A stretch of 54,182 nt of DNA from the IMG/VR virus record IMGVR_UViG_2585427735_000009; one strand, given 5' to 3'. Positions within the stretch are counted from its first letter, which is position 1. The number at the start of each line of letters is the position of its first letter. The notes below the pieces were generated by a model, which did not search any database, was not told the origin of the DNA, and saw nothing but the letters and a program-made list of their open reading frames with translations. Both the position numbers and the translations under genes were made by a program. Source of the DNA: a virus. Taxonomy: Duplodnaviria > Heunggongvirae > Uroviricota > Caudoviricetes. Below are positions 22,216 to 31,890 of the stretch, piece by piece.

Positions 22216-22638
22216 TCAGAAAAGCCGGGGCTGCGTGCGTTCCTGATGCAGGCGGCGCTGGTTACGGATAACGGAGTAAATCTGCGTCTCTGACATCTGG
22301 TAGTGGCGGCGCAGGGGTTCAATTTTTTCGCCCTGGCTCCAGCGGGAAAAAATCTCATTATTGCGCAGTTCGGTGAAAAGGGATTCACCGACCGGGAGAT
22401 AATAACCACGCCCGCCCATGTACCCGGCCTGTGCGGCCGCAACTTTACGGGCAAGCATTCCCGCCTGAGCAGGTTCAATCCCCTGACGGTGCAGTTCAGC
22501 ACTGATCACATCAACCAGGTCCCGCAGCGTGCCGGGCCAGTTCTTTTTCAGCTCATCATCAGGAATATCATCCAGACGGTCAATCAGCGCGTGCAGCTGT
22601 TCGCTGTCACCAAACATGCTCATCTGTGTTTCAGCCAT
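22216..22638 (-). CDS. Mor/C-family transcriptional activator of middle/late genes
   Basis: 140-aa ORF between gemA-like gene and lysis genes; C-terminal HTH typical of Mu Mor/C family. Confidence 0.75.
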   Translation of the reverse strand: MAETQMSMFGDSEQLHALIDRLDDIPDDELKKNWPGTLRDLVDVISAELHRQGIEPAQAGMLARKVAAAQAGYMGGRGYYLPVGESLFTELRNNEIFSRWSQGEKIEPLRRHYQMSETQIYSVIRNQRRLHQERTQPRLF

Positions 22639-22708
22639 ACCCGCCTCCGGTCATCATTACACAGGGCAAGTTTAAAATAAAAATCCCGCGCTGTGGCGGG
22701 ATTTGGAG

Positions 22709-23221
22709 TTAACGGGGGAATGATTTTTCATACAGCCTGCAAACGCGCTCATAACTTATCACTGTACGCGCTGACATCCCCAGCACATCCAGCATTTTGC
22801 GGCGGTGCCAGCGTTTGAGACGCTCCAGCACATCAGAGGCCAGTGCGGGGTGTTGCTCCAGCCACTGCCAGTTAGCCACACCTTCACCGCCGTTCTGCGC
22901 GGCCGTCTGCGATTTCACCCAGCGGTTAATGGCGTTTTCCCCGCCATCAGCGATAAAGCCCTGCCGGTGCATCACTTTCCAGATGGCGCGAATTTTGGCG
23001 GTCACCGTCCCCGGTTTTAAGGCCCGGTTAACCGGCTTCTGACGCACTTTAAAACCGCGTTTTTTGAAAACATCCAGCACGCGGGATAACTCATCCGGTG
23101 ACATATCCCGGCAACTGGGTTTGCCGGTGGCTGCCAGTAGTACGGATGTGTAGGTCTCATGGTCAAGCTGTAGATCGCGTTTTGCGACATGTATTAAGGT
23201 AATCAGGGAAGCGCGATTCAT
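22709..23221 (-). CDS. gemA: GemA-like regulatory protein (Mu gp16-like)
   Basis: 170-aa ORF, position immediately upstream of mor/C; translation resembles Mu GemA family. Confidence 0.7.
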   Translation of the reverse strand: MNRASLITLIHVAKRDLQLDHETYTSVLLAATGKPSCRDMSPDELSRVLDVFKKRGFKVRQKPVNRALKPGTVTAKIRAIWKVMHRQGFIADGGENAINRWVKSQTAAQNGGEGVANWQWLEQHPALASDVLERLKRWHRRKMLDVLGMSARTVISYERVCRLYEKSFPR

Positions 23222-23285: not shown

Positions 23286-23696
23286 ATGAAAATAGATTAC
23301 GATGAAGTATTAAGTATTCTCACAACTTTTCAGGATGCTGAAACACCTTTCCTTACACTACAGGATCTGGGCATGGCTGAGGCAGAAGGAGAGGAAAAGG
23401 ATAAAAAAGTTTTTCATCTTATGCTTCTCGCTGATAATGGCTCAATTGTTAATGGTGATATGCAGTCAGAAACACCCAAATATATTGGTTTCTTTTTCCA
23501 TTCTCTGGGCGTTGGTTTCAGAAACACGCCCATTATGCTTACCCAGCAGGGGCATGATTTAGCTAACGCCCTGAGAAAAAAACCAATCCTTGAAAGAATC
23601 AAAAAGGAGTTTACAGACGCACCATTTGATCTAATTAAAGAAGTTACCAAATCAATGTTAACCAGGTTCGTCAAAGAACGTATTGGGATTGACTGA
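23286..23696 (+). CDS. Hypothetical protein, inverted AT-rich insert in early region
   Basis: 136-aa ORF on opposite strand to all flanking phage genes; visibly AT-rich; no recognisable motifs. Confidence 0.5.
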   Translation: MKIDYDEVLSILTTFQDAETPFLTLQDLGMAEAEGEEKDKKVFHLMLLADNGSIVNGDMQSETPKYIGFFFHSLGVGFRNTPIMLTQQGHDLANALRKKPILERIKKEFTDAPFDLIKEVTKSMLTRFVKERIGID

Positions 23697-23966
23697 ACAA
23701 CTTAATTCAGCCAGTAATCGCAGGGCGGCGACAGCCGCCTGCTTGTCACTTCTTTTAGCTATTTCCGCAAGAGTATGCACAATCCATAACGGACTTAACG
23801 CCACGGCTGAATCCAGAATCATGTCATCCATAATAATTTCTGGCATATCCCGCTTGTCACATTCTTTATCCATAAAAGAAACGAATTTCTCTGCATCTTC
23901 CGGTTTCATGCCTCCGGCGATAAGGATTTTGCGATATTCATAAGACGATCTTAATTCAATACTCAT
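23658..23966 (-). CDS. Hypothetical early-region protein
   Basis: 102-aa ORF; 3' end overlaps convergently with the plus-strand ORF. Confidence 0.4.
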   Translation of the reverse strand: MSIELRSSYEYRKILIAGGMKPEDAEKFVSFMDKECDKRDMPEIIMDDMILDSAVALSPLWIVHTLAEIAKRSDKQAAVAALRLLAELSCSVNPNTFFDEPG

Positions 23967-23981
23967 TATTCACCTGCCTGC

Positions 23982-24374
23982 TTAATCTGTTTCCAGTGCT
24001 TTGCTACGGGCTATAGCCTCACATTCAAAAAATACCGACTCCGGCACGCGCTCTTTTAATTCACGAACAAGGAAATCATTAACGCGTTCATGACGTCTTA
24101 TATTTCTTTCCTTTTCCTCCTGGCGCAATACAGCAAGGCGGTATTCAACAGCCCGGCGTTGTTTCTGAAAGACAGCCAGTGCTTTTCTGGCAGCATTACG
24201 CCATGCATCATCGCCACATGGTGCGTATTCAAGCTGAAATTTAATCTCTTCAATAGTTTCTTTGATTTTTGCCAGCAAGCTAAGACAGTCGCTTATTGTC
24301 TCCAGCTTTTCATTATCAATATAACTTCTCACGCATTCACCTCCCGTAATTCCGGTAAAGCCGAAATATGACAC
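23982..24374 (-). CDS. Hypothetical early-region protein
   Basis: 130-aa ORF in co-directional early gene block. Confidence 0.45.
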   Translation of the reverse strand: MSYFGFTGITGGECVRSYIDNEKLETISDCLSLLAKIKETIEEIKFQLEYAPCGDDAWRNAARKALAVFQKQRRAVEYRLAVLRQEEKERNIRRHERVNDFLVRELKERVPESVFFECEAIARSKALETD

Positions 24375-24658
24375 CAGTGCGTCACCTGTCCGTCTTCATC
24401 TTCAAGGCAGGCTCCGGTTTCTTCATCAACAAAAAAGCCTTCATACCCCATATGGCCGATGCGCAGCTCCTGACGGTGACCATACTGAACAATCAGCACG
24501 ACAGCCTCCATATCAGGTGGGAAAGCATCATTCAGTGAATGCCAGGGATAACCGCGTAAATCCCCGAAATAAACACCGGTCAGCGTTCCGCCACAGAGCG
24601 GCATTCCGGCGGCACACACAAGAGGTTCATCTGATTCAACAAATAAGGTCGTTATCAT
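24329..24658 (-). CDS. Hypothetical early-region protein
   Basis: 109-aa ORF; 4-nt overlap with upstream gene. Confidence 0.45.
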   Translation of the reverse strand: MITTLFVESDEPLVCAAGMPLCGGTLTGVYFGDLRGYPWHSLNDAFPPDMEAVVLIVQYGHRQELRIGHMGYEGFFVDEETGACLEDEDGQVTHWCHISALPELREVNA

Positions 24659-25206
24659 GGCGTTAACTCCCGTAATACAGCGTCCTCGGCAGTCCGGCGA
24701 CGGTAATAAACTGCGTGAGCAGAATGTTCAGATATTCCAAACTTTTCGCCAATTTCCCGGAATGACAGACGGCGTGGGTAATCGGAATCACGCAGCGCAC
24801 GTATAAGACGTACATCATCATCAGATATGCGCGTGCCGGGGCGTAACTCTCCGCACTTTGTTAATCCAGCACCAATCATTCCTGCCCGACATCTGACAGA
24901 ATCTTTATTACGTCCGAGATATTCTCCCATTTGCTGGCAGGTCATTGTTCTGGCATTTTTTCGAATAAACTTATCTTCATCAGGTGTAAATCTTGGGTGT
25001 TTATATTTCAGTAACTCCGGGTATGAACTGCGCAATACACCAGTCCGGTTATATACAGCCCAGACAGTTCTTTTTATTCTGGCAGCAATATCCTTAACCG
25101 GGGTGGATGAATAAAGCGCAATCAGTAGCGCATCTTCTTCAGGTGTCCACGCGCGGACATGAGCGGGTGTACGACCTTTTCGCCCCATGTGTTGTAAAAT
25201 CATCAT
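24655..25206 (-). CDS. Hypothetical protein with Myb/SANT-like helix-turn-helix repeats
   Basis: 183-aa ORF; repeated W/F-x-TP-(E/D)-ED motifs (RAWTPEEDALLIALY, RFTPDEDKFIRKN, ISDDDVRLIRAL) suggest tandem HTH repeats. Confidence 0.45.
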   Translation of the reverse strand: MMILQHMGRKGRTPAHVRAWTPEEDALLIALYSSTPVKDIAARIKRTVWAVYNRTGVLRSSYPELLKYKHPRFTPDEDKFIRKNARTMTCQQMGEYLGRNKDSVRCRAGMIGAGLTKCGELRPGTRISDDDVRLIRALRDSDYPRRLSFREIGEKFGISEHSAHAVYYRRRTAEDAVLRELTP

Positions 25207-25209
25207 ACA

Positions 25210-25725
25210 TCACCCCCTGACTCGCTTTTCGGCAGCATAAAACTCATCAGACAGAATTTCGGTCATTTTCCGTTTTGCGGAATCATCTTCGCACTGAAGA
25301 TAAATCACATTGTCAACGCAGAACCAGTTCACGGGACCATACAATATTGCTGAGAAGTCAATACCCAGCCAGAACAACAGGGCATCGGTTCTGGCATACG
25401 TGACGGGCGAATATTCACGCCACAGACTGTTCAGTTCATCAGAGGCAACACGCAGGGCTTTAGGGATACGTGATGTGCGCGGTGTGCAGCTCCAGCCATT
25501 CGACGCAGTCGGTTTTCGCCATAAGTCGCGATGAAAAGGATATTTGTCCTCCGTAAAACGCAGTCCCTTAAAACAAAAACCACTGATACTGAATTCAAAT
25601 ACCGACCGGCACGCAACATTCAGCACGGCCTCAAGGCGTTTCGCCTCATCTTTTACCGTCTGGCAGTCCTGCTGGTATTTTTGCCACGCAGCCAGCGCGG
25701 AAGGGTTTGATGTTTTAAAGAACAT
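25210..25725 (-). CDS. Hypothetical early-region protein
   Basis: 171-aa ORF in co-directional early block. Confidence 0.45.
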   Translation of the reverse strand: MFFKTSNPSALAAWQKYQQDCQTVKDEAKRLEAVLNVACRSVFEFSISGFCFKGLRFTEDKYPFHRDLWRKPTASNGWSCTPRTSRIPKALRVASDELNSLWREYSPVTYARTDALLFWLGIDFSAILYGPVNWFCVDNVIYLQCEDDSAKRKMTEILSDEFYAAEKRVRG

Positions 25726-26901: not shown

Positions 26902-27432
26902 TTATTTATTCAGTCCGGCATCCTGTTCAAAAGGCTCGACATAAAAACTTTCAGCGCCTTTATTCACCTTTATACCGGCAATGCCTTTCACCGCATCCGG
27001 CTCCGCCAGGACGGCTTCCTTGTTCACTTCCTCTTTCGTGCGGATGAATCGCTCAAGCCCCATACGGCGCAGCGTGTCAATCACACCTTCCACATCACGG
27101 CTGACGCTGCATGATGGCGTTCCCAGCCGCCATGACACCGTTCCGGTGGTCAGATTGGCAGTTTTGGTTTTGCCGCCGTTCGTCAGCTCATCACGGTTGG
27201 TTTTACACCAGTCCTGAATCCCTTTAAAAAGCACTTTGATTTGCTTTTTAAGATTTTCAATCTGCGGCGTATAACGGGCGGTGATTTCTGCCACTTCATC
27301 ATTCATCGCCGTTTCCAGGCGCAGCGCCTCTCGCTGAATATCGCCCAGGGTGCGGATATCGCGGCTGACTTCTTCGCGGGTCTGCGGTGCGGCCTCGGCT
27401 ACAGCCTTTAATTTTGTAACGCGTTTTGCCAT
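26902..27432 (-). CDS. gam: Host-nuclease inhibitor protein Gam (Mu Gam-like)
   Basis: 176 aa; strong similarity to Mu Gam as recalled (..DIQREALRLETAMND.., WCKTNRDELTNGGKTKTANLTTGTVSWR, FIRTKEEVNKEA, PFEQDAG). Confidence 0.85.
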   Translation of the reverse strand: MAKRVTKLKAVAEAAPQTREEVSRDIRTLGDIQREALRLETAMNDEVAEITARYTPQIENLKKQIKVLFKGIQDWCKTNRDELTNGGKTKTANLTTGTVSWRLGTPSCSVSRDVEGVIDTLRRMGLERFIRTKEEVNKEAVLAEPDAVKGIAGIKVNKGAESFYVEPFEQDAGLNK

Positions 27433-27443
27433 TTTGTTTTTCC

Positions 27444-27737
27444 TTATTGCAATGTATCTGGTGCGTTCTGCAAGGAGCGGCGCTCAATGCTGCTTTTCAC
27501 CCCCAGAGCCTGCATGGAACCCTGAAGTTCATCTGTCAGAAACTGAATAATTGTGGGGCTGTGATATTTAAGAATTTGCGCATAAACATCACATGGGCCT
27601 GTCGGTCTGTTCTCCGTATCACGTTCGATTTTTACAGTGGCAGTAACCCCCTCCGTGATTTCCTGACTATCATTACCGGCTGGCTTTACTTCATGCATTA
27701 CGTGGTTAAATTCAAAAATAACGCGTACTTTGCTCAT
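27444..27737 (-). CDS. Hypothetical small early protein (paralog A)
   Basis: Internal start MSKVRVIFEFNHVMHEV...; N-terminus similar to the adjacent upstream gene. Confidence 0.4.
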   Translation of the reverse strand: MSKVRVIFEFNHVMHEVKPAGNDSQEITEGVTATVKIERDTENRPTGPCDVYAQILKYHSPTIIQFLTDELQGSMQALGVKSSIERRSLQNAPDTLQ

Positions 27738-27741
27738 GGAA

Positions 27742-28014
27742 TTACCCCTGCTGATTAAATTCATTACCGTTAATAACCCCGGAAGCCATGCCCCTGTCTT
27801 TCATGAATGCACTGGCTTTCATTGCCACAAGCTCTGCGAAGTTTCTGCTTTCCGCGAGCATAACCACCCCAAAAATCATGGCGGGTCCATCACCTTTCTG
27901 CTTTATCCCGGTTGAACGTATGTCCAGACTTACCCCCATGCGCACTGTTCCATCAGCGTTTTTATGGATAACGTGCTCCTTATATTCGAAAATAATGTGT
28001 ACGACTTTACTCAT
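27742..28014 (-). CDS. Hypothetical small early protein (paralog B)
   Basis: 90 aa, MSKVVHIIFEYKEHVIHK...; N-terminal similarity to neighbour. Confidence 0.4.
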   Translation of the reverse strand: MSKVVHIIFEYKEHVIHKNADGTVRMGVSLDIRSTGIKQKGDGPAMIFGVVMLAESRNFAELVAMKASAFMKDRGMASGVINGNEFNQQG

Positions 28015-28560: not shown

Positions 28561-28788
28561 TTAGCTGACTTGTTTCGCACCAACAGAACGGCATATTCCG
28601 CTGTAAACTTCTGTCGCACCTTCGCGATCAAGTCCGGCAGATATCACCATTCGTGTGCGGTCATTAAATTCAAAAAGTAAATCGCCACATTCTTTATTTT
28701 CGGCCAGTGAAATCACCTTCACGTTATCGAAATTAACCAGGTAAAAGCGTCCGTAAATATCAGGAATATTAAATACCGCCATAATCAC
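28561..28788 (-). CDS. Hypothetical small early protein
   Basis: 75-aa ORF immediately downstream of B. Confidence 0.4.
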   Translation of the reverse strand: MIMAVFNIPDIYGRFYLVNFDNVKVISLAENKECGDLLFEFNDRTRMVISAGLDREGATEVYSGICRSVGAKQVS

Positions 28789-29726
28789 ACCTGTGAGAGT
28801 AATTCAGGGTTGGTATAAACCTCTTTAAAGGCCGCATTAATATGTTTTTCTGTCAGCGCCGCGCCTTCACCGCTGGCGGTGAGCCACGCCTGGTTAAGCG
28901 TATGTGTCAGAACGCGTAACGCTCCCGGCTTTTCAGCGATAGCCTGCATGACGGCCAGCTCGGCCTCACCACTGATCCCCCACGCCATGGCAATGGCCAG
29001 CACATCCGCCTTTTTGGCCTTGCGAAGTTGTTTTGTACGGGCAAGACGGCTGAACAGGCGCGATAAATCATCAAAGGCGCGGCGTCCACCTTTAAACAAT
29101 CCGCGCGGGTTACCAATAAGCACCATCCCGATCCCCGTGGCGTCCTGAATTGCCCGGAGTTGCTCCAGACCGTCAATACCAAGATGATCCGCCTCATCCA
29201 CAATCACCAGTCCACGCGTTCCCATCAGGCGACGGCGGATGGCGCGGGATAATGCCCCTTTGTTCGCGCGGGTGTAATCAATCCCCAGCGCATCGGCCAG
29301 CTCCAGCAGACACTCCGTGACGCTGGAGTGCGCGGGTGACAGGGTGATCATCCAGGTGTTTGGTTGCTCCTGGCAGTAATTACGGGCAGTGGCCGTTTTA
29401 CCCACACCCGGTACGCCCACAATAACGTTAATACAGCCCATCAGGCGAACCGCCTGAAACAGTGCGCGCAGCTCCTGGACTGTCTGAGTTTCCACAAACT
29501 GCGGCGGTTCCGGCAGTGCGCTTTGTTTATTCCAGTTCTCATACCAGGAGCGCAGGGAAGCAGCCACAGCAGCGTTATCGCCTTTATATTTTCCCTTACG
29601 GAAAGCCGATAATGTGCCGTCGGAAATTCCCGCCTCTCTGGCGATGGCATACTGCGTCAGTACGCCGCCATCAATAAGTTCATCAATGGTCTTGATTACA
29701 TCGTTAATATCGGTCATATTATTCAC
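28785..29726 (-). CDS. B: DNA transposition protein B (AAA+ ATPase, Mu B-like)
   Basis: 313 aa; N-terminal HTH, Walker A VGVPGVGKT, Walker B VIVDEADHL; colinear with Mu B. Confidence 0.9.
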   Translation of the reverse strand: MNNMTDINDVIKTIDELIDGGVLTQYAIAREAGISDGTLSAFRKGKYKGDNAAVAASLRSWYENWNKQSALPEPPQFVETQTVQELRALFQAVRLMGCINVIVGVPGVGKTATARNYCQEQPNTWMITLSPAHSSVTECLLELADALGIDYTRANKGALSRAIRRRLMGTRGLVIVDEADHLGIDGLEQLRAIQDATGIGMVLIGNPRGLFKGGRRAFDDLSRLFSRLARTKQLRKAKKADVLAIAMAWGISGEAELAVMQAIAEKPGALRVLTHTLNQAWLTASGEGAALTEKHINAAFKEVYTNPELLSQV

Positions 29727-29799: not shown

Positions 29800-31890
29800 T
29801 CAGGCCAGCGGATCACTTTCTTTTAATTTCGCTTCGAGCAACTGCAATCCCCGCTGGAAATTACGCTCGTATTCTTCATCAGGTTCATCGTCAGCGACCG
29901 GTTGCTGAACGGTCACCGTATTACCCACAGGGCGGTATATGTTTTCCAGCCAGGGCTCCTGCGGCTTGTGCTCCAGCACGTTGACAACCTCATCCTCGGC
30001 ATCACGGATTTTTTCCTCTGCGCGTTTACGCATGCCTTTAAGGCGCTGCTGCTGTTTGTAGTATTCCGCGCTGACAGGGAAGGCTTCGCGTTTATTGCCG
30101 TCCCATACCGCCTCGCAAATCACGCTGCCATCCGGGCGGCGCACGGTAATTCGTTCGGCATCATGAATGTCATAGCTGATAAGTACCTTACGGCCATGCT
30201 CGTCACGCAGCTCGGGCGCGTAGTAAATATTATTCAGCCAGCGTATTTCACAGCGTCTTACAGGGCGCTCCACCATCGGCCGGAACATATCCCGCAGTTC
30301 AACATCGGACAGCCATTCAATTTCCGTGTCCTCTTCCGCCAGGCGTTTTTTTCTGAACTCCGCCGGGCTGTAATGTTTACCGTTCGGCTTCATGGGTAAT
30401 TCATCGTGCGGCCGGTTGTTGTACCACTCAACACCGTCACGAATGGCATCAATCAGTTCAGACCAGGACGGTAAATCACGCATCGCTGACTGCTGCCGGG
30501 CGTTCAGCCGTTTGCCCTGTTGCAGGGCACTGAATGCCGAGCGTAAATCGCGGTTGGTTTTACGTAACGTCTCGCGATCTGCTCCTTTCCCGAAATAGGT
30601 GCGGTATTTACGGGCTATGCGCATCGGTAATGTGCGGTTAAGCCGTTCGATAATGCCCCGTCCCTGCGGATTACCGGCAATCCCTGTCGGGTGATTAATC
30701 CCCAGTCGTGGCAGTATCCCCACAATCTCCTTATCCAGGACGTCGGCGGTTTCCCCGGAGCCATTATCCGAGTAATACAGAAACGGTTTGCCATGATGGC
30801 GAATACCGTGCTGTATGGCACCGGCTACGGCGAAAACATTTTCAGCCAGGTCAAGGCTCCAGCCCACCACAAAGCGCGTGCCACCGTCGATAACAAAGGT
30901 CACTTCCGGTGCGAATGGCCGCCCGTGAACCGGGTGCGCGCATTTCAGCTTCATGCCGTGACCGTCACCAATCCAGACATAATTCACCGGCATTCTGGAC
31001 CAGTCGCGGCGCGTGAATCCCTCAAGCTGACGGTATTCACTGCCAGTTACCCGGCCTTTTTGTTTCACCACTTCCGGCAGTTTCTTCATTGCGCGGCGAA
31101 TGGTGTCATAAGAGGGCATGATATCGAGCATATAAGGCTCATCAGCGTGCCGGTGCTGCCATTCAGCAACAAAATCCTCGTAAGCCTCGGTCATTGGTCG
31201 GCCGTTTGACTGGCGATACTGCGCCAGAAATTCGGGCAGCCAGTTAATATCTTCGGCTTTTATTTCCTGGCGTTTACCCGGTGCCAGTAAAAGCAGGCGT
31301 TCAGCGGCGTTCTGTGCCTTGTTAAAGGCCGCAATCCAGCGTTTCAGCGTGATTTCACTCAACGCGCGGCTGTTTCCCTTTTTGGCGTTCGCCGTCTCAA
31401 CCATTGCCACAATGCGCTCGTCCAGTTGTGATCGTGCCAGGCTGTTAACGAGGAACCGGATAGCCTTAGCGCAACTAAAGCCGGGTTGTTGCGCGATTTT
31501 CAGCACCTCGCTGACGATCGCTATTCGTGCCTCTGCCACTTTACGTTGGTTTTCAGTCAGGGCATTGAGGCGTTCGACCATCAGTTGGGGTGATCCGCGA
31601 TATGCCTCCACCGCATCAACCACGGCAGGTGAGCGTCTGGCCTTTGTCACCACCGGAGCCGGTGATTCATCGGCTTTTTGCGTCATCAGTTGCAGGGCGT
31701 AGCGTTCACGTAATGCCTGCTGCGTCACTTCAGGTAAACAGTCGATGCTGTATTCAGTTGCTTTAGAGCCTGAGCGACGACGGGAACAACAGCTTTTCCC
31801 TTGTACGTAACGTTGTAATGCCTGGCGAATACCTTTTGTTGTAGCAGGCATTCCGGGCGCGCCAATCAGTTCTTTTGCAATGACATACAT
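29800..31890 (-). CDS. A: Mu-type DDE transposase A
   Basis: 696-aa ORF between ner and B; size and position of Mu A. Confidence 0.88.
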   Translation of the reverse strand: MYVIAKELIGAPGMPATTKGIRQALQRYVQGKSCCSRRRSGSKATEYSIDCLPEVTQQALRERYALQLMTQKADESPAPVVTKARRSPAVVDAVEAYRGSPQLMVERLNALTENQRKVAEARIAIVSEVLKIAQQPGFSCAKAIRFLVNSLARSQLDERIVAMVETANAKKGNSRALSEITLKRWIAAFNKAQNAAERLLLLAPGKRQEIKAEDINWLPEFLAQYRQSNGRPMTEAYEDFVAEWQHRHADEPYMLDIMPSYDTIRRAMKKLPEVVKQKGRVTGSEYRQLEGFTRRDWSRMPVNYVWIGDGHGMKLKCAHPVHGRPFAPEVTFVIDGGTRFVVGWSLDLAENVFAVAGAIQHGIRHHGKPFLYYSDNGSGETADVLDKEIVGILPRLGINHPTGIAGNPQGRGIIERLNRTLPMRIARKYRTYFGKGADRETLRKTNRDLRSAFSALQQGKRLNARQQSAMRDLPSWSELIDAIRDGVEWYNNRPHDELPMKPNGKHYSPAEFRKKRLAEEDTEIEWLSDVELRDMFRPMVERPVRRCEIRWLNNIYYAPELRDEHGRKVLISYDIHDAERITVRRPDGSVICEAVWDGNKREAFPVSAEYYKQQQRLKGMRKRAEEKIRDAEDEVVNVLEHKPQEPWLENIYRPVGNTVTVQQPVADDEPDEEYERNFQRGLQLLEAKLKESDPLA

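Follow-up and report, generated by a model that had tools for sequence, protein, structure and literature searches.

Among described DNA-binding proteins, the closest to the phage protein analysed here are the R2-R3 repeats of c-Myb (PDB 1H88, 1MSE) and the GcrA family (PF07750), whose Caulobacter representative (PDB 5YIU, 5YIV) consists of a single DNA-binding domain and a C-terminal domain that binds region 2 of sigma-70. GcrA reads N6-methyladenine (m6A) by means of pockets formed by R33, N34, I37 and G38 (PMC5887438). An arrangement of three repeats is found in Cbp1 of Sulfolobus, an archaeal, chromosomally encoded protein that binds CRISPR repeats and of which only ~105 residues have been solved (PDB 2LVS). 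Within phages, repeats of the same type as the first two of the present protein are carried by HNH homing endonucleases (PHROG 1891; mycobacteriophage Thibault gene 103).

Here we analyse a Myb-like gene located in a 54,182-nucleotide stretch of viral DNA (IMG/VR record IMGVR_UViG_2585427735_000009), hereafter referred to as the window. A preliminary description of the gene, made from the sequence alone, had presented its product as an early-region protein with three Myb/SANT-like repeats, of a kind unusual in phage early operons, and had considered it either a DNA-binding regulator or a mimic targeting host factors. No experimental work on the protein, or on members of its family PHROG 323, was found in the literature searched.

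Gene and operon setting

The window contains a Mu-like Escherichia coli prophage. The 1.1 kb surrounding the Myb-like gene is 100% identical in two complete E. coli chromosomes, and a partial match to this region is present in 232 of 5426 complete genomes, with at least 80% of the region present in 144 of these. The open reading frame (ORF) is complete and its product of 183 residues is identical to RefSeq WP_000973019.1, 'SANT/Myb-like DNA-binding domain-containing protein'; the ORF described previously was confirmed in its coordinates and length, and it has an ATG start on the minus strand (Table 1). The gene is located within a long minus-strand early operon, between Gam and GemA/Mor, with a lysozyme gene also found downstream together with GemA/gp16 and Mor. 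The Shine-Dalgarno-like element, together with the 3-nt distance from the upstream stop and the stop/start overlap with the next gene, indicates that the Myb-like gene is located inside the early transcript and is tightly coupled to its neighbours, and, as judged from the nucleotide sequence, the overlap of the Shine-Dalgarno-like element with the upstream stop fits translational coupling within the operon. The encoded protein is basic, with a pI of 10.0 and 35 Lys and Arg residues versus 22 Asp and Glu residues. PADLOC returned no match for the Myb-like gene or for seven of its neighbours, and scans for promoters and terminators remained at or below the level expected from shuffled sequence.

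Table 1. Features of the Myb-like gene, its product and its early operon, with positions in the window
Feature	Position	Strand	Description
Myb-like gene, complete ORF	24655..25206	minus	ATG start, 183 aa + stop; TGA stop
Shine-Dalgarno-like AGGGGG	25213..25218	minus	6 nt 5' of the Myb-like ATG, strong; overlaps upstream gene stop
Upstream gene stop	25210-25212	minus	Myb-like ATG begins 3 nt after the stop
ATGA overlap	24655-24658	minus	Myb-like gene stop overlaps start of next gene
N-terminal arm, aa 1-18	25153..25206	minus	Conserved peptide, consensus MxLxPMGxPGxxPxHxRxW; predicted disordered
Repeat R1, aa 19-61	25024..25152	minus	Myb-like three-helix bundle, WTPEED start; W20 invariant in family
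Repeat R2, aa 72-112	24871..24993	minus	Myb-like three-helix bundle, FTPDED start; Myb-like LGRxxxSV signature
R2-R3 linker, aa 113-125	24832..24870	minus	K117 and G119 invariant in both alignments; basic arm RPGTR into R3
Repeat R3, aa 126-170	24697..24831	minus	Divergent helix-turn-helix, ISDDDV start; closer to sigma-70 region 4, HTH_23 and AsnC-type HTH
C-terminal helix, aa 173-181	24664..24690	minus	Conserved tail, consensus RxTAxDxxxRExLP
Intragenic divergent patch	~25090 to 24700	minus	Sliding-window DNA identity 58-87%; R1 helix 2 through R3 helix 3
Transposase	29800-31890	minus	Upstream of Myb-like gene in early operon
MuB-like ATPase	28785-29726	minus	Upstream of Myb-like gene
Gam	26902-27432	minus	Upstream of Myb-like gene
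GemA/gp16	22709-23221	minus	Downstream of Myb-like gene
Mor	22216-22638	minus	Downstream of Myb-like gene

Three further features of the operon were observed. The 70-nt gap between GemA and Mor contains a strong terminator-like hairpin (22681-22704, minus strand; 9 pairs followed by TTATTTT), which could attenuate or terminate early transcription ahead of mor. A gene of the DUF2513/PHROG 585 type (23286-23696, plus strand) is encoded on the opposite strand within the otherwise minus-strand operon, where its 3' end overlaps by 39 nt with the 3' end of a convergent 102-aa ORF (23658-23966, minus strand), and looks like an inserted moron. Upstream of Gam, two small adjacent ORFs (27444-27764 and 27742-28014, both minus strand) have similar N-termini (MSKVRVIFEFNHVMHEV..., from an internal Met, and MSKVVHIIFEYKEHVIHK...) and, on a reading of their translations, look like a tandem duplication.

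Sequence relations of the three repeats

The protein had been described as containing three spaced motifs of the form (W/F)TP(E/D)ED. A regular-expression scan finds exactly two, namely WTPEED at residues 20-25 and FTPDED at residues 73-78, and the third position, residues 127-132, is occupied by ISDDDV, which is degenerate and falls outside the form. The motif spacings are 53 and 54 residues, with ISDDDV at the equivalent position, and a spacing of 53-54 residues matches the period of Myb repeats. Local alignment of the single sequence gives a weak signal for R1 against R2 (z = 2.8, with 18 of 1000 shuffles scoring as well) and nothing above chance for R1 against R3. The comparison was also made with profiles from the family alignments, A1 comprising 12 sequences and A2 comprising 23 sequences down to 30% identity. 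With hhalign of family profiles, R1 and R2 are clearly homologous (probability 98.8%, P 6.6e-17), R2 and R3 are matched at 93% (P 3e-7), with RFTPDEDKFIR aligned to RISDDDVRLIR, and R1 and R3 are matched at 84% over the helix-turn-helix part only. Thus, the repeats share tandem homology of the kind found in R1R2R3 proteins, with R3 only weakly related to R1 and R2.

The kinship of R1 and R2 with Myb repeats is visible in several searches. The Pfam model Myb_DNA-binding (PF00249) reaches 25.2 bits for the whole protein, less than 1 bit above the gathering cut-off of 24.4, and its best stretch covers only residues 19-33, which form helix 1 of R1; PF13921 scores 17.5 bits against a cut-off of 22.9. 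The A1 family profile, searched against PDB sequences, matches c-Myb R1R2R3 (1h88_C) at E 1.7e-4, with residues 19-106 in register with Myb R2-R3, and Cbp1 (2lvs) at E 0.005. The family profile was needed for this, since the single sequence reached only E 0.087, for a homeodomain (2da1_A) whose arm and helix 1 were weakly matched by residues 121-161. Across the 23 sequences of A2, Myb models are found at E <= 0.01 in 12 (Myb_DNA-bind_6) and 11 (Myb_DNA-binding) cases, and Sigma70_r4 and HTH_23 match 16 and 14, respectively. No NCBIfam model matched the protein above threshold. Only the first of the three regularly spaced Trp or aromatic residues that characterize a Myb repeat is kept, as the invariant W20 in R1 and as F73 in R2, with I127 at the corresponding position of R3; in the HMMER alignment to c-Myb, the second Trp corresponds to V37 and the third to variable, non-aromatic positions.

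R3 is of another kind. Its Pfam matches, all below threshold, are to AsnC-type HTH, HTH_10 and sigma-70 region 4, such that by sequence it is not a Myb-type repeat and resembles one only at the level of the fold. The tandem Myb/SANT repeats proposed earlier therefore stand for R1 and R2, as supported by the borderline Pfam score, the match to c-Myb and the RefSeq name, and not for R3. Taken by sequence, the family sits among the three-helix helix-turn-helix families, R1 and R2 having their nearest relatives in Myb and R3 in sigma region 4 and in homeodomain-like helix-turn-helix domains.

Other assignments were considered and rejected. A sigma factor is not indicated, as no region 2 was found and the region 4-like matches of R3 are weak (PF04545, E 0.14; TIGR02937, 12.2 bits against 42.9). 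Membership in the AsnC/Lrp family fails on the missing C-terminal AsnC-type (RAM) ligand-binding domain, and the AsnC-type HTH match of R3 scores 19.8 bits against a cut-off of 27. Homologues with 44-97% identity are present in E. coli, Salmonella and sequencing-run assemblies. RefSeq proteins of the family are named either 'SANT/Myb-like DNA-binding domain-containing protein' or 'AsnC family protein', and in the absence of the AsnC/Lrp ligand-binding domain the latter name is a misnomer for many of them. A zinc site was likewise rejected, the Cys and His positions in the N-terminal peptide and linker being conserved neither between the E. coli alleles nor in the family.

Among phage families, the protein gives a significant full-length match to PHROG 323, 'transcriptional regulator, D5-like' (E 5.8e-52, 178 bits), in which residues 5-182 are aligned to positions 82-256 of the 319 in the profile. 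A weak match to PHROG 1891, 'HNH endonuclease', is also present (E 0.0017), and the Thibault gene 103 region is matched by tblastn with 35% identity over residues 12-118.

Predicted structure

The AlphaFold2 model, computed from alignment A1, has a mean pLDDT of 78.7, with block values of ~80-92 in the repeats and below 50 for residues 1-13. Helices are predicted at residues 22-32, 37-44 and 48-61 in R1, at 75-84, 90-97 and 101-110 in R2, and at 129-140, 149-156 and 160-169 in R3, followed by the C-terminal helix at 173-181. The helix-like segments that had been noticed after the motifs are therefore borne out by the model, as is the expectation of helix-turn-helix repeats, since three tandem three-helix repeats are predicted. 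Each conforms to the three-helix bundle of the Myb/SANT type, of about 50 residues, in which helices 2 and 3 form the helix-turn-helix. All 183 residues are accounted for by the arm, the three repeats and the short tail. With a pTM of 0.45, the model does not predict the arrangement of the three repeats relative to each other.

Searched as a whole against the PDB with Foldseek, the model yields no significant match, Cbp1 being found at E 0.13. The best structural match is the DNA-binding domain of GcrA, and the phage protein has the fold of the N-terminal GcrA DNA-binding domain; the Pfam GcrA model, however, does not match even at E <= 10. Against BFVD, ten viral proteins are found at E <= 0.001 and many more below 0.01, including several paralogues from phage Goslar (one of which is named Myb-like), endonucleases and an 'AsnC family protein' of an Escherichia phage.

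Distribution across phages and bacteria

A profile search of 1.84 billion cluster representatives identified 8170 proteins at E <= 0.001, 84 of them at E <= 1e-30. The 180-residue architecture is present in at least five diverged Mu-like early operons as well as in P2-like operons. In Salmonella Mu-like prophages the homologue directly follows a homologue of Mu Gp12, and in three further Mu-like phage lineages, with 33-40% identity, it lies zero to three genes upstream of GemA. In P2-like prophages and phages it is located upstream of the replication protein gpA, either directly or within two or three genes, and in one lambdoid-type early region it is found beside Lar and Rha-like genes. The gene is thus a regular feature of temperate-phage early operons and not an oddity. 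The earlier view that such repeats are unusual in this setting is wrong, given their recurrence in many Mu-like and P2-like early operons, the 8170 representatives and the many look-alikes in BFVD. Phage Mu itself gave no match in a tblastn search of 50,697 phage records at E <= 1e-5, from which we conclude that the gene is accessory. A scan of the genome_contigs set yielded one locus.

The neighbourhoods of the homologues hold additional genes of note. P2-like loci with a homologue carry accessory or defence-type genes around gpA, including TerB, an Rv2179c-like exonuclease, a ParE-like gene, a D12 methylase and, just downstream of gpA, a protein with a Shedu SduA C-terminal domain (L016, 2620-3054 and 8344-9543; L022, 2918-3732). 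In Salmonella Mu-like prophages (L028, 5040-5987; L030, 2624-3700), a gene resembling dATP/dGTP pyrophosphohydrolase (PF04447) is located two to three genes downstream of the homologue and is absent from the E. coli window.

Many of the profile matches are long proteins from metagenomes and one bacterial metagenome-assembled genome (MAG) with many copies of the same WTxEED repeat. One of 797 residues from a Propionibacteriaceae MAG (P0035) has ~15 copies, and in another of 807 residues (P0026) a ResIII/Helicase_C domain precedes a run of about nine near-identical repeats.

Two E. coli alleles differ in their recognition helices

Mu-like E. coli prophages carry two alleles of the gene, whose products share 97-100% identity with that of the window in one group and ~71% in the other (allele B), and the genes that flank both allele groups share 88-100% identity. 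At the DNA level, both ends of the gene and the flanking genes are roughly 90-100% identical, with short dips to ~0.82, and the divergence is confined to the intragenic patch (Table 1). Within the protein, 49 of 57 positions in the first and second helices are identical between the alleles, compared with 14 of 34 in the third helices (Fisher p 1.4e-5), and dN/dS is 0.10 in the former and 0.75 in the latter. A similar distribution is seen across the family, where the entropy of the third helices is 2.35, 2.77 and 2.45 for R1, R2 and R3, versus 1.73, 1.94 and 1.08 for the first helices. The most conserved parts of the family are helices 1 and 2 of R3, the R2-R3 linker with its invariant K117 and G119, and W20; R3 accordingly unites the two best conserved helices of the protein with a highly variable helix 3.

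Between the alleles, dS in the gene is 0.61, approximately three times the 0.19-0.27 of two neighbouring genes. A value this high speaks for recombination with a diverged allele and against rapid change in place. As far as the sequences go, the allele data fit a divergence of specificity and a relaxation of constraint equally well, and with dN/dS below 1 they do not prove positive selection.

We note that in several allele-B prophages (L009-L011, L013) the two genes downstream, corresponding to 24329-24658 and 23982-24374 of the window, are missing or replaced. In one of these (L010), DNA identity falls to 37-57% immediately after the Myb-like stop codon.

Discussion

We suggest, with a probability of roughly 0.6, that the Myb-like protein is a small, basic, monomeric protein that reads the sequence of double-stranded DNA and serves as an accessory early regulator or DNA-targeting factor. 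Encoded in the early operon of a Mu-like prophage, it would be synthesized within the first minutes of an induction or infection. It would consist of a flexible, conserved N-terminal arm, Myb-like R1 and R2, a conserved basic linker and an R3 that resembles sigma-70 region 4 and homeodomains. By analogy with c-Myb R2R3, the GcrA DNA-binding domain and Cbp1, the third helix of each repeat would be placed in the major groove, such that the three repeats together may read one extended asymmetric site of ~15-20 bp, to which the protein would bind as a monomer. The use of such repeats as DNA-binding modules is supported by the protein in which they accompany a helicase domain and by the mycobacteriophage matches, which fall on genes annotated as HNH endonucleases. 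The conservation of the scaffold helices, together with the variability of all three recognition helices, makes it probable that the sequence read differs from phage to phage and between the two E. coli alleles. Where the members of a transcription factor family share a site, it is in most cases the recognition helix that is conserved best. As phage Mu has no match, the protein is likely to be dispensable for the core Mu or P2 cycle, and we infer a regulatory role as an accessory one.

High variability of the third helices could equally reflect relaxed constraint and non-specific binding. The protein would then be an architectural DNA binder, similar to nucleoid-associated proteins, that aids transposition or replication or remodels host DNA, and whose third helices drift under weak constraint. 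Several observations agree with this: the protein is very basic, the dN/dS of its third helices remains below 1 and fits relaxation rather than positive selection, and the gene is found together with MuB, Gam and GemA in Mu-like phages and with gpA in P2-like phages, all accessory to replication or transposition. In addition, a search for candidate binding sites in 21.5-33.5 kb of the window revealed no repeated motif family, only two-copy matches at chance level. However, tandem modules of the Myb, homeodomain and sigma region 4 types are typically sequence-specific, the same repeats act as targeting modules in homing endonucleases, and a core architectural role is at odds with an accessory gene that has no match in phage Mu. 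We therefore regard a non-specific binder as unlikely, although it is the alternative that we take most seriously.

If the protein does read sequence, as we prefer, its three-repeat scaffold might form a cassette system for specificity, in which recognition helices are exchanged or diversified between otherwise identical prophages and retarget the protein to other DNA, for the purpose of phage-phage or phage-host conflict or of a phage-specific switch. The long prokaryotic arrays, with up to ~15 copies, might in that case read DNA in a modular fashion, the relation between repeat and sequence being partly decodable. This extension is speculative and we consider it improbable.

A role in conflict has also been weighed in its own right, namely that of a DNA-targeting factor whose specificity has diversified against competing phages or host defences, acting in superinfection exclusion or in the protection or masking of DNA. 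The allelic patch is intragenic and covers the recognition helices in prophages that are otherwise near-identical, and the neighbours of the gene in accessory hot spots include Lar, methyltransferases, ParE-like, TerB and Shedu-like genes, as would be expected of such a factor. In contrast, dN/dS does not exceed 1, and the threefold excess of dS over the flanks means that recombination with a diverged allele explains the patch better than selection in place. The chance that conflict is the primary role is, in our view, slim.

A link to DNA methylation was suggested by the best structural match, as the GcrA DNA-binding domain is an m6A reader (PMC5887438); the phage protein would either read m6A in a similar way or act on phage DNA methyltransferases as their partner or regulator. 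Indeed, in the P2-like loci L016, L018, L020, L022 and L026 a D12-class adenine methyltransferase is encoded shortly upstream of the gene, either as its immediate neighbour or separated from it by one or two small ORFs, and a C5 methylase adjoins the gene in L020 and lies within two genes of it in L031. However, the P2-like cases share one common backbone and are not independent, and no methyltransferase is found nearby in any of the Mu-like contexts, the window included, or in Shae_phiSM, L023 and L035. We have downgraded the link on account of the Mu-like contexts. Moreover, in a manual alignment the GcrA pocket residues appear to correspond to variable and different residues in R1 and R2, and the phage protein has neither the sigma-interacting domain of GcrA nor a match to the Pfam model. 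The mycobacteriophage 'methylase' matches, for their part, belong to an ORF of their own, which is read in a different frame and splits a C5 methylase gene. Altogether, a function tied to methylation seems very doubtful.

The interrupted methylase gene deserves a brief description. In Mycobacterium phage Bombitas, a C5 cytosine methylase gene is split into genes 109 and 110 (L024, 2004-3887): gene 109 contains positions 2-172 of the methylase domain only, followed by a low-complexity tail, and gene 110 contains positions 273-322. The tblastn match of the Myb-like protein (L024, 2501-2797) lies in a frame that differs from that of gene 109, indicating an inserted ORF, annotated as an HNH endonuclease in Thibault, that has probably been mis-annotated as part of the methylase. 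Judged from its reading frame and annotation, this case is one of a homing endonuclease in which the repeat is the DNA-binding module.

SANT domains are typically acidic. In line with the mimic proposed by the preliminary description, the ligand of the repeats could be a protein of the host or of the phage, such as RNA polymerase sigma, a repressor or a defence protein, instead of DNA. This would suit the location of the best-conserved surfaces, which are found in helices 1-2 of R3, in the linker and in the N-terminal peptide rather than in the recognition helices, and fast evolution of the third helices would be in keeping with an arms race against a protein partner. The idea is unsupported and very doubtful, because a pI of 10 suits nucleic acid, PADLOC yields no match to a known defence protein, and the sequence relations are to the DNA-binding families Myb, sigma region 4, HTH_23 and AsnC-type HTH.

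Since RefSeq already has the Myb-like call and phages commonly encode tandem helix-turn-helix proteins, the call as first stated carries little weight. What is modestly new is only the recurring operon position, which makes the 180-residue architecture a recurrent accessory gene of Mu-like and P2-like early operons, and the variable patch over the recognition helices. If the alleles bind different sites, they would provide a simple natural system for specificity change in tandem helix-turn-helix repeats and might reveal a new regulatory or exclusion step in transposable phages.

Comparison with known systems

The family that contains the protein, PHROG 323, offers a comparison by name only, as the family labels derived from sequence are no more than names. 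Compared with Caulobacter GcrA, the phage protein has three repeats where GcrA has a single DNA-binding domain, and the C-terminal domain of GcrA has no counterpart. Cbp1 shares the number of repeats, and the Foldseek match to the phage model is not significant. The HNH homing endonucleases of phages contain a nuclease domain that is absent from the Myb-like protein, whereas the R1-R2 type repeats are common to both. In comparison with c-Myb R2-R3, aliphatic or other residues take the place of the second and third Trp in each repeat, the third repeat belongs to another helix-turn-helix subtype, and transactivation or regulatory domains are lacking. Finally, the recognition helices, which are conserved in c-Myb, are the variable part of the phage protein.
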